Shown here: positions 16,712-25,930 of the stretch, in pieces
How the letters are laid out: each line of letters opens with the position of its first letter
Position numbering within the stretch: position 1 is the first letter of the stretch
Origin: an uncultured delta proteobacterium
Lineage (GTDB): Bacteria; Desulfobacterota; Desulfobacteria; Desulfobacterales; QNYZ01
Direction: 5' to 3'
Length of the DNA: 64,000 nucleotides
Assembly (NCBI GenBank): GCA_963783425.1
Contig: CAWANO010000018.1
Location: forward strand, 6,219-70,218
Made by a program: the position numbers and the translations under genes
Notes under the pieces: generated by a model
The model's database searches: none
What the model was told of the DNA's origin: nothing
The model's input: the letters and a program-made list of their open reading frames with translations, nothing else

Positions 16712-18463
16712 CTAATCCTTCAGCACACCGAAGCGGACCAGATTATCCCGGGCAAACTCAATGCTTGGATCGATCTCCAACGCCATCTGATAGTATTGGA
16801 TGGCTTTGTCGCGCTGGCCCAGTTCGCGATAATTGGAGCCGATGTTGGCGTAGTCGATGGCCGAGTTGGGATTGAGGTTGATAACGTGCTCAAAGCAGTT
16901 GATGGCCTGCGCGTGCTCCTTGAGCTGGTAGTGGCAAAAACCCATCAAGTTGTGGATGTCGGTGCGCTCCTTGTCCAGGGCGGCACCCTTCTCCAAAACC
17001 TGCAGGGCGTCGCGAAGGTTTCCCAGATCTTTGTGGCAGATGCCCAAGTAGGAGTAGATGCTGGGCGCATCTTCCGCGGCGGGATCGAGCTCCAGAGCCC
17101 TATTGAAGAAGGGTAGTGCATCATCGGGCCGCCCCAGGTCGAGTTGCGTGGCGCCGATGTAGAAGTTGATGTAGTACTTCTTCGGCAGCATACGGTCGGC
17201 CGCAATGAGGTGGTCAAGGGCCTGATCGGGCGCAAAATTTTGCCGGATCAGTTTGGTGCTGAACATGCCCACGCTCGTTCCGGCTGCACGCTCCCTGAAG
17301 TGCGCGCCGGGGATGATGGTGTAAAAGGCGGGGATGTCCAGTTGGGCGTGGCGGGTGTTGATCACATGCACCTCGAAACCGCGATCCTGCAAAGCGGCGA
17401 GACAGTTCTCCACCTCCAGGCGGATGTTGTTGTCGGAGAGGTCGGGGAGGTCCTGGATATTGAGCAAACGCCGCGGCGTGGTTACATACTCGGCCTCTTG
17501 CAGAGCGTAAAACTTGGGCAGACCACTGGCCACAAAGTTGGCGCCGGTGTTGAAGTCGCCGGCCAGTTGGGCCACTTCGGTCATGGTGCGGCTCAAAGCC
17601 TTTTCCGGATCGGGGGTGGTGCCGGCGGTCCATACGATTTCGCTCTGTTCCGGGAACGTGGCCGGATCGAAGGCCAGCATGCCCACGCTGGGAATGCCCA
17701 TGTCCAGCGTAAAATCCGATAGGTAAAAACGAATGCCGGCTTTTTCGGTATTTTTCGGTCATGTCCACGCACGGCATTGTCGCGGGCCGAGTGGGGGCGA
17801 ATACCCGGAGTGCGGATATGATTGCGGCTGACCAGGGCGGAAACGTGGCGTTCCACGATTTCGCAGATACCCTGCGAGCAAGGCCTCCTCCTGGCAGTTT
17901 CCGGCTGAAGGGCCGTTGAACTCGTTGATGGCGTAAAACCAGTCGAAGGGCACTATCACCGCACGCTGAGCGGTGAGGTTGTAGGCCGGGGTCCAGCGCA
18001 TGGGGATTTGCTCGAAAATCTTGCGGGCCGCGCCAAGATCCGCGGAGTCGTCATGAACAGACCTGGCGATCATTTTGAAAGGCATCGCCCGGTCGCCCAC
18101 TTGGCCGCAAGTGGCCACCTTGAAGTTAGCCGGCGTGTTGACAAAGCTGAAAAAACTAAAGCGCTCGGCCAGCTCCATCACCGCGCTGGCCTCGGCCTGT
18201 TCGGGGGTGGCGCCTTTACCCATCTGTTTCTTGGTGCCGGTCAGAGTGGCGGCGTCCTTGCCGCATCGGCTGAAAAAGACAGGGATGTCCAGGCGACCGT
18301 TGTCGATGCGCACGGTTTCTTTGAGGATCTCCAAGTCCACCTGCTGCAACCTCGCCTTGAATCTGCGCACGGTCTCTTCCGGCGGCAGCACCTTGTCCTG
18401 GTCGGCGGTGAAGGTTTTATAGGCGTCCTTGAGGACGATTCTAGTAGACATGGCATTTTCCAT
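16712..18463 (-). CDS. YcaO-like protein with C-terminal TPR repeats; frameshifts near 17730-17880
   Basis: GKGATPEQAEASAVMELAER, NGPSAGN.QEEAL, EIVERH YcaO motifs; C-terminal TPRs (YSYLGICHK, HNLMGFCHY, YANIGSNYR). Confidence 0.85.
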
Positions 18464-20694: not shown

Positions 20695-20710
20695 TGGCAC
20701 GGCATATGCA
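20695..20710 (+). promoter_or_regulatory. Sigma54 -24/-12 promoter
   Basis: TGGCAC-ggcat-ATGCA vs consensus TGGCAC-N5-TTGCA; ~80 bp upstream of the ATG at 20792 and divergent from a sigma54 activator. Confidence 0.85.
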
Positions 20711-20791: not shown

Positions 20792-21307
20792 ATGAAATGC
20801 AAACTTTTCATCGCCGTTATGGCAACAGTGTTGGTGGTGTGTGGCGGAGGGCTGACGGGCTTCTGCGGAGATGTCGCTACCCATAAAGCCGTCGCGCCAA
20901 TTGGCGGGTATGATACAGACTTCGGACACTATACCGACGGCCTGCAGCCATCCATGGTGCAGGCGGCCTTCAGGGCCGATTATGACATGGATTACGGGCA
21001 CGTTACAGACAATATGGAGCCCTCGCTGGCCTATGCCGCATTTATCGTAGATTACCTCGAAAAGTGTGATTGCAAAGGCGAGTTGCTCAATGCCAAAAGC
21101 CTCAGCATCCGCAAGGCCGCCGTGCGCGATACGGTCAAGGGCGCCTATGTACGGGATAACCAGGCCGAGTTGGTGCGTTATATGTTGGAGAACAATGTGC
21201 CCATGAATCCGCGACGCGTGGAGTATGTCATCAACCAGCAGTTTACTGCGCAAGTAAGCCCGCAAGAGGTTTACACAGTACTGGCAAAGGAACCAATCTA
21301 CGAGTAA
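20792..21307 (+). CDS. Hypothetical secreted protein, paralog 1
   Basis: RBS aggagga; signal-peptide-like N-terminus; C-terminal ~95 aa align with 22454-22837; internal repeat YDTDFGHYTD/YDMDYGHVTD. Confidence 0.8.
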   Translation: MKCKLFIAVMATVLVVCGGGLTGFCGDVATHKAVAPIGGYDTDFGHYTDGLQPSMVQAAFRADYDMDYGHVTDNMEPSLAYAAFIVDYLEKCDCKGELLNAKSLSIRKAAVRDTVKGAYVRDNQAELVRYMLENNVPMNPRRVEYVINQQFTAQVSPQEVYTVLAKEPIYE

Positions 21308-21515
21308 GAAATGTGAAATTTGTTTACATACATGGCCTTGGTTCGTATAAGGCCTCACCCCGTGGGCGTCAAAATGACGGCCCACGGAACTGGAGGGCCA
21401 CCAGGGCGGTTCACCCAACCGCTCTGACCCTAAAGCTCCTTTACATAAACGCTGGATTTGACGGAAGCGATCGATTCGACCGATTAATATCGGCACTGCT
21501 TTTCGCCAGTTCACA

Positions 21516-21660
21516 CCGGTCGCGCACGGGATTTAAGCCGATCAAGGCTTATCTGCCCAAACCGAAACAATAATTGCCGAGTTACCAAACCAAACGCTGC
21601 ATCGATCCGGCAAGCCTTCTGTTCGGTTCCCACCCGCAACCTCTCTCTCCGTGCGCGAAC
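21516..21660. ncRNA. Candidate structured RNA/DNA element, copy 1
   Basis: Closing stem tcgcgcacgg/ccgtgcgcga, hairpin taagcc/ggctta, inner stem aaccgaa/ttcggtt; homologous to 22999-23151. Confidence 0.5.
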
Positions 21661-22188
21661 ACCCCCCTCCCAAGCCGAAGTATCGTTTTACAACTGAGCC
21701 AATTTCAAAACGTTTTGAAAAAAGCTCAACTGCTATTCTAATCTTTTTGTGGGGTGGGGTGATCTCCGTCTAAGTTGTGATATCAACAGGTTCGGAGATT
21801 ACCCGCCACACCACCGGCGGGTAAAACCACCACAAGGCTGGCGGTTAAACAGCGTCGCTGGCGCTTCTCGCAATGAACATGAAAAAAATGGCGTGCTGGC
21901 CTTACCGAAGTGCACCCTGTCTCGTTTCCGTCATTTCCTCTTCCTTTAATTATGCCCCTTGCCGTCTCTATGACCTTGAAGACTTAAAGTCATTGCGTCC
22001 ACAATATAGTGTCGCGTTACGCTTGAAATAGTGCACTTTGCTTGCCCTTTTTCGCGTTTGCTGAGTTACGCTTTCAGACATATAGGAGAAAACGATATGT
22101 CAAAAAGTGTGCCTTGCAGACACAAAAAAAAATTGCGGCGCGATCTTACGACATTTCAAACGTGACGCGACACTAGTCTGCCGAGTGC

Positions 22189-22237
22189 GTAAAGTTTCTA
22201 TGCGATTAACGACGCATAAACAGTAAACTAACTTGAC
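22189..22237. promoter_or_regulatory. Paired putative enhancer (UAS) sites, second copy
   Basis: gtaaa-gtttc-tatgc (22189-22203, degenerate) and gtaaa-ctaac-ttgac (22223-22237), 34 bp apart. Confidence 0.5.
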
Positions 22238-22347
22238 AACATAGCCGTGGTCATCCCCAACGGGCCGTATGCCAAAACATTTTAAATATGCATGATATCA
22301 GGAGGATAGATTCATAATAAAGGAAGATTAAAGCCAATATTTTCCAT

Positions 22348-22363
22348 TGGCACGAACCCTGCA
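22348..22363 (+). promoter_or_regulatory. Sigma54 -24/-12 promoter
   Basis: TGGCAC-gaacc-CTGCA, ~90 bp upstream of the ATG at 22454. Confidence 0.85.
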
Positions 22364-22453
22364 GTAAAAACAACCAGAGCGGCAAGAAAAACCTAAAGTC
22401 GCCAACATCGACAAGCAGGTTTGAAAAAAATCAACCAACAGAAGGAGGGGAAC

Positions 22454-22837
22454 ATGAAAAGCAAACTTTTTATCGCGATCGCCGGCACACTGTTTCTGGT
22501 TTTTGGATGGACCCTGACGGGCCTTTGTGGAGAGACGGCAACTACTGACTCAGCCCAAGCCTACGGCGCCTTTGTCGACGACTTTATCGGCAAGTGCAAG
22601 GCCAAAGCCGACCTGCTCGATTCCAGCAGTGTCAACATTCGCAAGATAGCCATTCGGGCCATTGTCAAAGGCGGTTTTGTGCAATCCAACCGCGACCAGG
22701 TAATCGAATACCTGACGGCCAAAAAGGTGCCGCTGAATGCCCATCGCGTCCAGTTCCATTTGAACCAGTTGTTTGCCCAGTCCGTGCATCCGGAAGAGGT
22801 CTACGCGAGATTGATGAGAGAGATTTCGGCACAGTAG
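22454..22837 (+). CDS. Hypothetical secreted protein, paralog 2
   Basis: RBS aaggagg before ATG 22454; MKSKLFIAI vs MKCKLFIAV; shared AYxAF..D...KC..K..LL...S..IRK.A.R..VKG..V..N pattern. Confidence 0.8.
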   Translation: MKSKLFIAIAGTLFLVFGWTLTGLCGETATTDSAQAYGAFVDDFIGKCKAKADLLDSSSVNIRKIAIRAIVKGGFVQSNRDQVIEYLTAKKVPLNAHRVQFHLNQLFAQSVHPEEVYARLMREISAQ

Positions 22838-22998
22838 ACTGCCACCATTCGTCAGACCGTGCATTCATCGCTCCATACCAAATTACCGGGCATGATGAAT
22901 ACCAACAAACCAACGTGATCTGATCTTTTATAAACCATTGCCCATCGCAGCTACCGGTAGAACGGGTCGGCAGGGTCCATGCATTACCGACAATCTCT

Positions 22999-23151
22999 CC
23001 GGTCGCGCACGGGAGCTAAAGCCCTCCGGGCTTATATCGCCACAGCCGAAACCCTAAAGCCGCGGTTGATCCAACCGACGCTGGCACCCGAAAGACAACC
23101 CGGCCCCTAAAATTCGGCTCCTGCCTGCAAACTCTCTCCCCGTGCGCGACC
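22999..23151. ncRNA. Candidate structured RNA/DNA element, copy 2
   Basis: Perfect 13-bp closing stem ggtcgcgcacggg/cccgtgcgcgacc, hairpin aagccc/gggctt, inner stem agccgaa/ttcggct. Confidence 0.5.
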
Positions 23152-23219: not shown

Positions 23220-23663
23220 ATGCCCATTGAACTATTTGAAGCATTCATGTTGATCTGTTTTGGCAGCGCCTGGCCCTTTGCTATTGCTAAAAGTCTGCGC
23301 AGCCGTTCGGCGGGCGGTAAGAGTCCGGCTTTTCTGATGATAATTTTCACGGGATACTTGTCGGGTATTACGGCCCACCTGTTGCGGGGTTTTTCACCGG
23401 TGGTTTTGCTATACTGCTTGAATGCCTCCATGGTGTTCGCGGACCTTTGCCTGGTGCTGCGATATTGCGGCGAGGAGGAAAGTAAAGTGGGCGCCGCTCC
23501 CTCCCATGCCGCGGTGACGTTGTACAAAAGGGGGGAAATTCAGGCCGCTGAAAATATTGAAAATGGCGGATTTCCCGCCGGCGTTGCCAAGTTTGGTAAC
23601 AGTTCCTTCAAGCCTGATCTGAACACGCCCATCTCATCGAACCATATCGCCGTAAACGGCTGA
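23220..23663 (+). CDS. Small three-helix membrane protein, PQ-loop/SemiSWEET-like
   Basis: RBS aagga before ATG 23220; FEAFMLICFGSAWP..I.KS.RSRSA.GKS..FL pattern with three hydrophobic segments. Confidence 0.65.
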   Translation: MPIELFEAFMLICFGSAWPFAIAKSLRSRSAGGKSPAFLMIIFTGYLSGITAHLLRGFSPVVLLYCLNASMVFADLCLVLRYCGEEESKVGAAPSHAAVTLYKRGEIQAAENIENGGFPAGVAKFGNSSFKPDLNTPISSNHIAVNG

Positions 23664-23816
23664 TCGTGGTATGAGTTGTTGTCATTGCGGGAGACACCAG
23701 CCATGCGGGAATTGCGGTGACTGTCGGCATCACATCCTCAACAAGCAACGGCTGTGGAGATTGCCCGCCACACAAACGGCGGACAAGCCGCTTTCACTGC
23801 GTTTGTGGTAGCATCT

Positions 23817-24007: not shown

Positions 24008-24337
24008 ATGAAACCTTCCATCAATGTGGCCATGACTTTGAAACCATCCGCCCGCAAGCCGGCGACCATCGCCGAGATTCAGAAAATCGCGCAAAGCCTC
24101 GGTTTTCAGGCTTCTGCCACCGGGCGCACCTCCATCAGTTTCAGGATAGACCCCGAAGTGTTTGAACGCGTTTTCGGCGTTTCGGCACAGCCGGTGCCGC
24201 CCCGGCCTGCAAACGAACGCGATTTCGGGGCGCCGGGGGGCTATGTCGTCGATGCCGACTTGACGGTACCCCAGGAACTTCGGCCATATATCGAAACCAT
24301 CGGCGTCATGCCGCCGGGCCGCCGCTTCGGGCAGTAG
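24008..24337 (+). CDS. Small protein resembling the prodomain of the downstream subtilase
   Basis: RBS aggag; LGFQASATGRTSISFRIDPEVFERVFG aligns with EGFRVSSRGRMAVVVRGLKKDFERVFG in the next gene. Confidence 0.7.
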   Translation: MKPSINVAMTLKPSARKPATIAEIQKIAQSLGFQASATGRTSISFRIDPEVFERVFGVSAQPVPPRPANERDFGAPGGYVVDADLTVPQELRPYIETIGVMPPGRRFGQ

Positions 24338-24370
24338 GCGTCAAATTTCCCCTTTAAAAGGAGGTTCACT

Positions 24371-25930
24371 ATGCCGACGAAGAAAAAAGCTTCCACTAAA
24401 AAGACGACCCCTACAGAGAAGCCGTCCGCCACAGGAAAGAAAGGTCGGGTTTCCGTGAAACCCTCCCAAGAGCTGCGCATCGCGGTCACCTTCAAGCGGC
24501 CGGCGGATGGGCTCGGGCTGGTTCGGTATGACGTACCTATGACCGCCGATGTGGTGAGATCGTTCCAGCCGGACGAACAAACCATCGGTAAAGGCATAGC
24601 CGCCCTGGAAAACGAGGGGTTTCGCGTCAGCAGCCGCGGCCGCATGGCGGTTGTGGTGAGGGGGCTTAAAAAGGATTTCGAACGCGTTTTCGGCACCAAG
24701 CTCACCCCTTTTGCCATGCGGAGCGACAAAACGACCCGGCCTTCCAGCGACTCGGTCTATTTCCCGAAAAAAAATGCTCCTTGGGACCCGGACCCCGCCA
24801 TCATCGAACTGATCGACGATGCCTACATCCAGTGGCCCCACTACTACATGAACTACCGTTTCAATCCGCCGCCGTCGCCGTTGCCACCGCACGTCAGCTT
24901 TCACCATCTGCGCGTGCCGGGCGATGTGGCCTTGTTGACCAATGCGGCCCGGGCGCACCGGGAGGGGATCACCGGCGCCGGCGTGCGCGTGGCCATGGTG
25001 GATAGCGGTTTTTCCCACGGACATCCCTATTTTCAGGAGATGGGGTATAACTCAGCCGTGACGTTGGCGCCCGGTGCAAACAAAGTCGATCTCGATGGGG
25101 TCGGCCACGGTACGGGTGAATCAGCCAACCTGTTTGCCGTGGCGCCGGACATTACCTTTATCGGCGTGAAGGTCGATAATGAGGATGACCCCTATCTCGG
25201 GGCCAGCATGCTGGAAGGGTTTCAGGAAGCACTGCGGCACAATCCCGATGTGATCTCGATCAGCATGGGTTACGATCTCTGCCCAACGGACATTTACGGC
25301 AACCGCATCAGCAACGACCACCTGACCGCATTGCCCAACTCGCTACGCGCTCTGGAGGCGGAGATCCAGGCGGCGGTGGCCGACGTGGTGGTGGTGGTCT
25401 TTTCCTCCGGAAACGGCCATGTGGGCTTTCCGGGCATGATGCCCGACGTGATATCGGCGGGGGGTGTTTTCGTGGCCGAGGACGGTGCCATGACAGCCTC
25501 TGACTACGCCAGCGCCTTCGACAGCAAGATCTATCCCGGCCGCCATGTTCCCGATTTTTGCGGTCTGGTGGGTATGGCCGAAAACCATGCCGAATACATC
25601 ATGCTGCCCATTCAATGCGGCTGCCAGATTGACACCGGTGAAAGCGCCACCGACGAGACCGCCCCGGACGACGGCTGGGGGGTCTTCAGCGGCACATCGG
25701 CGGCGGCGCCGCAAGTGGCCGGGGCCTGTGCGCTGATGCTGCAGGCGGACCCCGATCTGGCGCCCGGCGACATCAAGCAGATTTTGCGCCGCAGTTGCCG
25801 GGACGTCACCCTCGGCAACGCCAATCCGGCCAGCAATGAAAACGCCGGGGGCATGCCCGCCGGGTTCGGGGCGGATGGGGCCACAGGGGCGGGATTGATC
25901 GATGTTTATACCGCTCTTGACCAGATATGA
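24371..25930 (+). CDS. S8-family (subtilase) serine peptidase, no obvious signal peptide
   Basis: Catalytic motifs VAMVDSG, GHGT, SSGN (oxyanion), SGTSAAAPQVAG; RBS aggagg. Confidence 0.92.
   Translation: MPTKKKASTKKTTPTEKPSATGKKGRVSVKPSQELRIAVTFKRPADGLGLVRYDVPMTADVVRSFQPDEQTIGKGIAALENEGFRVSSRGRMAVVVRGLKKDFERVFGTKLTPFAMRSDKTTRPSSDSVYFPKKNAPWDPDPAIIELIDDAYIQWPHYYMNYRFNPPPSPLPPHVSFHHLRVPGDVALLTNAARAHREGITGAGVRVAMVDSGFSHGHPYFQEMGYNSAVTLAPGANKVDLDGVGHGTGESANLFAVAPDITFIGVKVDNEDDPYLGASMLEGFQEALRHNPDVISISMGYDLCPTDIYGNRISNDHLTALPNSLRALEAEIQAAVADVVVVVFSSGNGHVGFPGMMPDVISAGGVFVAEDGAMTASDYASAFDSKIYPGRHVPDFCGLVGMAENHAEYIMLPIQCGCQIDTGESATDETAPDDGWGVFSGTSAAAPQVAGACALMLQADPDLAPGDIKQILRRSCRDVTLGNANPASNENAGGMPAGFGADGATGAGLIDVYTALDQI

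Follow-up and report, generated by a model that had tools for sequence, protein, structure and literature searches.

What is a non-coding element of about 145 bases that a sulfate-reducer-type bacterium carries once behind each of two related genes? The question is raised by a stretch of 64,000 nucleotides from an uncultured delta proteobacterium (contig CAWANO010000018.1 of assembly GCA_963783425.1), the whole of which is called the window here. A first-pass annotation had described two copies of about 150 nucleotides, lying 160–210 bp after the stop codons of two paralogs and sharing a closing stem, a small hairpin, an inner stem carrying a compensatory change (A-U to G-C), and a GCAA.CTCTCTC tract. 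All of these parts are found and both copies lie where they were said to lie, with ends that could be refined slightly from the closing stem (Table 1); they start 210 bases (copy 1) and 163 bases (copy 2) past their genes' stop codons, which lie at 21307 and 22837, respectively. As judged from sequence, the element is a real and conserved plus-strand candidate RNA motif that is narrow in range and has a predicted fold.

Table 1. Positions of the features discussed (window coordinates unless a locus, L, is named).
Feature	Position	Strand	Remark
Activator gene, 519 aa	18788..20347	-	GAF + sigma54-interaction + Fis-HTH; divergent from both paralogs
Sigma54-type promoter of gene 1	20695..20710	+	GG-N10-GC
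Paralog 1, 171 aa	20792..21307	+	N-terminal hydrophobic leader; 44-residue insertion relative to paralog 2
Strong hairpin run directly behind gene 1	21310..21500	+	Single copy; no counterpart in unit 2; no U-tract right after it on +
Element copy 1	21518..21660	+	P1 21520-21530/21648-21658; P2 21535-21539/21546-21550
Element copy 1, inner arm		+	P3 21560-21566/21622-21628; P4 21574-21579/21608-21613; P5 21581-21583/21604-21606
Sigma54-type promoter of gene 2	22348..22363	+	GG-N10-GC
Paralog 2, 127 aa	22454..22837	+	Five helices predicted for the mature part (pLDDT 93)
Element copy 2	23001..23151	+	Perfect 13-bp closing stem
Small membrane-protein gene	23220..23663	+	Starts 69 bases past copy 2; PQ-loop match, weak (E 0.04)
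Fold behind the family gene in genus g30	L077:1866-1990	+	
Same	L081 and L082:1344-1467	-	
Same	L090:1869-1992	+	
Closing stems with g30 end words behind the family gene, two other families	L076:1866-1990	+	
Same	L009:385-480	-	
Same	L092:1384-1479	-	

Both paralogs are preceded by GG-N10-GC sites, which by their consensus we take to be sigma54 promoters; the whole genome has 48 such sites in the strict form. The GAF-sigma54 activator encoded divergently from them is likely the activator of both, and a homologous activator gene is divergent from members of the same protein family in relatives, too. The two proteins are probably exported, as their sequences suggest, and they are 34% identical over 167 columns, the first, second and third codon positions of their genes being identical at 63, 69, and 46%. 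Paralog 1 falls into no Pfam or NCBIfam family, and no fold in the PDB matches the predicted structure of paralog 2. The family is unnamed, has 271 cluster representatives and is found in 48 of the order's 401 genomes, this one included. Its genes are often divergent from one for a GAF-sigma54 activator, some of its members are tandem double domains, and the insertion of paralog 1 is repeated and rich in Asp and Tyr; the gene behind family members in relatives is presumably PilZ-like. The gene for a PQ-loop-like membrane protein behind copy 2 is likely co-transcribed with unit 2. A promoter shared by the two element copies was found on neither strand; a sigma70-like site on the minus strand was rejected as such because it lies beyond copy 1 only.

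The same neighborhood contains a true MITE (22006-22175; 23-bp inverted ends, six further long copies in the genome), of which metagenome contigs show loose ends at both borders and which one contig skips (21987-22187), as well as small multicopy palindromic repeats at 21690-21730, 21784-21880, and 23680-23800, for which BLAST gives 5, 14, and 17 genomic pieces, respectively.

What is unusual about the element is its conservation rather than its fold. The two copies are identical in 108 of 151 positions, which is z 12.6 against shuffles, whereas the 5′ leaders, the spacers between stop codon and element and the 150-base flanks of the two units score at chance level (z 0.7–1.7), and the element is thus the sole conserved non-coding part of the tandem duplication. 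Conservation has sharp boundaries at the closing stem.

The folding z-scores are −3.2 (copy 1) and −4.3 (copy 2) on the plus strand and −2.2 and −3.6 on the minus strand. On the plus strand the predicted parts are a closing stem (P1, 11–13 bp), a 5-bp hairpin (P2), a 7-bp stem (P3), a symmetrical 8x8 internal loop, P4, a short P5 and an apical loop, from which arm a 19-base open strand bearing the GCAA.CTCTCTC tract leads back to P1. The tract is common to both copies, and so is P4, a GCCG/CGGC helix; the earlier statement that the loops diverge is to be corrected in that the inner arm is partly conserved, too. The apical loop is variable. Both copies are followed by C-rich tails that contain no U-tract. 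Covariation, also claimed at first, comes down to one pair in P3 that has changed on both sides between the copies, which does not establish significant covariation; a count of eight covarying pairs was dropped because the underlying alignment had been made to follow the structure and its registers were shifted. It should be noted that the branched architecture alone is, in predicted folds, common in the host genome: a comparable closing helix (confident, ≥10 pairs) around a multiloop is present in 42 of 120 control downstream regions drawn from a pool of 1104.

Strain variants, which were obtained from 6 of 17 metagenome runs (all DNA contigs), leave the stems mostly intact. Copy 1 has 14 distinct substitutions in three of these runs, of which 10 are unpaired, 3 keep and 1 breaks a pair, where 3.9 breaks are expected if the changes are placed at random (P about 0.06); in run X1 alone there are no breaks in 10 changes (P about 0.02). 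The sole breaking change, found in X5 and X6, affects the end pair of P2. The substitution rate itself is no lower in the element than around it (in X1, 10 in 113 as compared to 9 in 80 in the flank, which is close). Copy 2 variants include at least one deletion, at 23091 in the apical loop. A more distant homolog is present on one of the X1 contigs, where 33 bases with three differences cover the 5′ arm and P2 and are followed by a P3-like word. Three pairs alternate between wobble and Watson-Crick pairing in the strains (21530/21648, 21581/21606, and 21520/21658; X1 does not cover the partner of 21530) and a fourth, read by hand, does so between copy 1 and copy 2 (21583/21604). Since the alternating forms of these four pairs exist only on the plus strand, they point to this strand, which is that of the mRNA, and the strand, previously called ambiguous, is no longer so; such a wobble signal is by itself no proof of a role as RNA rather than as a DNA element. 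An overlapping frame of 86 aa has its start codon altered in X1 and X5, and no conserved small open reading frame was found in the element.

How far does the element reach beyond this locus? BLAST, nhmmer and two covariance models agree on two copies in the genome, which speaks against the high-copy MITE named as a refutation in the first-pass annotation; four weak matches besides lie in coding sequence, within a repeated gene that is likely one for a transposase. The covariance-model search of relatives proposed at the same time did not recover the element: model R1 with stricter filters matches none of 150 further genomes from the order, model R2 none of 10 chosen genomes, and the best match of R2 applied without filters to 28, 8, and 29 loci (E 0.009) is a CRISPR repeat, with no match at the family loci scanned in this way. 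BLAST found no other homologs in 60 relatives. With three mismatches allowed, a pattern for the 3′ side hit 15 of 400 genomes, all at three mismatches and at about the control level, and one for the 5′ side hit 2 of 400 genomes in the phylum; none of these hits was confirmed. The exact pattern is absent from the metagenomes searched. Viral contigs gave seven matches to the two arms, most of them inside reading frames and none confirmed by nhmmer, and later viral searches gave 0 and 0; plasmids gave no match and phages two weak ones in coding sequence.

In a genome of the same family (G003) the element is absent from the syntenic locus, where the gap between the family gene and the PQ-loop gene is 87 bases as compared to 382 in the window and where the spacer has no visible likeness to that in the window. 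The proposed membership of the element in the sigma54-driven unit thus applies to both units here, but not to family members in other lineages, which are without it. The host genus is represented by a single genome in the searched set, and the closest homologs (76–95% identity) lie on contigs outside the sequences searched, so that sampling is too thin in just the part of the range where the element is to be expected. A protein tree of 22 of the 150 listed representatives does not resolve the branching of copies 1 and 2 and the clade free of the element, and hence does not tell a gain of the element from a loss. Among the genomes searched the element is so far confined to a narrow lineage.

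Relatives have other folds at the same place. In four genomes of genus g30 the family gene faces the activator gene and is followed after 27 bases by a different branched fold with a closing stem of 11–12 bp, which is 88% conserved in the four genomes, with changes of the wobble type and no two-sided change, is single-copy in the three genomes tested by DNA search, and has no Rfam match at the locus tested (G032). A covariance model of it (R3) has matches only within the genus (2 of 151 genomes). Closing stems that look alike by eye are present in three further genomes (G007, G014, G845), but R3 matches neither these nor the window, and homology between the folds is therefore not supported. 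Branched folds were counted behind 12 of 16 activator-linked family members as compared to 13 of 27 other members and the 42 of 120 controls, an excess that is inflated by kin, which are not independent, and by the two window copies (one short row was dropped). With an unrelated fold at the same place in g30, position seems to count for more than sequence, and taken together these findings suggest, weakly, that a stable 3′ fold of any sequence is favored behind the family gene.

With respect to known RNA classes, the search of the Rfam 15 covariance models found only a tRNA in the window at the gathering cut-off and, with E values of up to 10 allowed, two matches that both lie off the element, and ARAGORN found nothing there, which agrees with the earlier failure to match it to a riboswitch, SRP RNA, tmRNA or tRNA. 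Likenesses to c-di-GMP, glycine, guanidine, and cobalamin riboswitches, which rested on words that we took to be typical of these classes, were dropped because cmscan gave nothing. The element was also not found in titles and abstract openings of the literature searched, although supplements on ncRNA discovery could hold a motif missing from Rfam. We therefore consider it as a candidate for an uncatalogued structured RNA.

The reading that we tentatively favor, with slightly less than even confidence and on sequence grounds, is that the element works in cis on the 3′ ends of both messages, in end protection or in processing. Transcription from the sigma54 promoters would run through the element, whose 11–13 bp closing stem would be the stable end left by Rho-type termination or by endonuclease cleavage and trimming; the stem may then block 3′-to-5′ decay or mark a processing site, and could also yield a stable fragment some 145 bases long. 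REP-type elements are examples of such 3′ stabilizers. As expected of a stabilizer, the predicted fold lies past the stop codon on the mRNA strand, to which both the folding and the wobble pattern point, and the element is the only non-coding part kept between two units whose third codon positions have diverged to 46% identity. Stem-loops at the 3′ end block exoribonucleases (PMC7509114). Like terminator hairpins and REP-type elements, the element has a stem, stable and rich in G+C, that lies in the message's 3′ region and on its strand; unlike them, it is 145 bases long, branched, present in two copies and equipped with conserved unpaired bases, and an intrinsic terminator (short hairpin plus U-tract) is absent, C-rich tails being found instead. 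Some points do not fit well. Simple end protection needs no conserved unpaired bases, yet GCAA.CTCTCTC is shared; the element lies 163–210 bases from the stop codon, an interval that behind gene 1 already holds strong hairpins; and most family members have no such element. The conserved unpaired tract in particular argues for more than a barrier, and makes a released, protein-binding RNA the main rival.

According to this rival, which is possible if doubtful, processing of the sigma54-driven mRNA releases a discrete ncRNA of about 145 bases, which works in trans and, as its ends are locked in a stem, most likely does so via a protein. The sharp conservation boundaries at the closing stem are what such an RNA would have, and the conserved unpaired tract and the symmetrical 8x8 internal loop would offer something to bind. 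There is also a precedent in GlnZ, which is released from the glnA 3′ UTR, depends on Hfq and has a base-pairing seed (PMC9731577). Like GlnZ, the element is a structured non-coding region past the stop codon of a gene with a sigma54-type promoter, from which release by processing is possible; unlike GlnZ, its ends are locked in the closing stem, it has no U-rich terminator end, and neither Hfq nor target pairing was found. The tract pairs with four local leaders no better than shuffles do, and the 94% complete genome yielded no Hfq, no Ro/TROVE, and no CsrA, the latter two being the partner proteins of Y RNAs and CsrB-type sponges. The very narrow distribution also speaks against a trans-acting RNA.

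More doubtful still is an origin from an old MITE that landed downstream of the paralogs' common ancestor, was copied when this gene duplicated and has been kept for its fold or by chance. The element resembles a MITE in its length of about 150 bases and its 13-bp terminal inverted repeats, it is absent from the syntenic place in G003, and the neighborhood is full of small repeats with one true MITE among them. It differs from MITEs, however, in having only two copies, both in matching gene context, no target duplication visible by eye and no partner transposase; no inward pair of these ends was found around another gene at 0–1 mismatch, and the interior stems are kept while the adjoining non-coding DNA has been scrambled.

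It is decidedly improbable that the element is a riboswitch-like cis leader of the PQ-loop gene, with copy 1 as a left-over. Copy 2 does end 69 bases ahead of this likely co-transcribed gene; copy 1, however, keeps its stems without the downstream gene, G003 has the PQ-loop gene without the element, no terminator on the plus strand lies between copy 2 and the PQ-loop gene, and no significant pairing with the leader of the PQ-loop gene was found.

Very little probability can be given to a stable RNA from the sigma54-driven mRNAs that would mimic a sigma54 promoter and sequester the holoenzyme or the activator, as an analog of 6S RNA with feedback on its own promoters. What speaks for it is the stem-bubble-stem layout together with the GCACG/CGTGC of the closing stem and the GCAA of the open strand, which we take to be the two halves of a sigma54 promoter and which occur in template order. 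They are, however, 10 bases apart rather than 4 as in the promoter, the match was spotted after the fact, and the closing stem is short. The 6S likeness noted in the first pass did not hold up: the 6S model (RF00013) has one match in the genome, the canonical 6S RNA on another contig (98.6 bits), and none on the element, and the sequence of this 6S RNA is unlike that of the element (z −0.5 to 1.0). RNA polymerase-binding RNAs other than 6S do exist, namely Ms1 and CoRP (PMC11077062), and with these and 6S RNA the element shares a closing stem, an open region, and a long inner arm; unlike 6S RNA, it is short-stemmed, has neither model match nor sequence likeness, and sits in a 3′ region of a genome with a 6S RNA of its own. 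Literature on a 6S-like RNA for the sigma54 RNA polymerase was not found. If it were true that the RNA binds this polymerase, 6S-type control would be extended to a second sigma family.

The likeness to retron msr-msd RNA, where an inverted-repeat arm is followed by a G, a small hairpin, and a long hairpin, is one of layout only (arm, G, small hairpin, long hairpin, and arm on the plus strand), and an orphan retron RNA has a negligible probability, since a retron reverse transcriptase is missing, which largely refutes it: all six matches to reverse transcriptases in the genome are off this contig, as had been stated for the window, none of the five scanned reaches a retron cut-off (three are group II intron maturases), motifs typical of retrons occur in none of the six, and the G.U pairs of the long arm would mismatch in the cDNA. 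A retron ncRNA goes with a contiguous retron reverse transcriptase gene (PMC7736814).

As to its wider meaning, the element is a candidate for an uncatalogued structured RNA in a genome in which neither Hfq nor CsrA was found, and its neighbors upstream belong to an unnamed protein family whose members are likely exported. If lineages keep unrelated branched folds at this place, the locus could serve as a compact model for the rise and turnover of RNA structures in 3′ regions. The importance is tempered by the candidate being lineage-restricted and by its host being known here from a genome assembly and metagenome contigs only.

Some other features were met on the way. The gene for a 636-aa reverse transcriptase elsewhere in the genome (L028:1021-2931, G000:C10) reaches no NCBIfam cut-off, the best being group II RT with 116 of 300 bits, and has weak matches to Drt and AbiA; it is possibly an unclassified defense reverse transcriptase. 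In the window, two adjacent frames on the minus strand (16712-18463) presumably are one YcaO-TPR gene in two pieces, and at 24008-25930 a subtilase gene (519 aa) is preceded by a gene for 109 aa with weak likeness to a pro-kumamolisin activation domain, which is perhaps a separate propeptide-like chaperone. A long CRISPR array behind cas1/cas2-like genes was met as a chance pattern match in another genome (L056 and L061, G422:C50).
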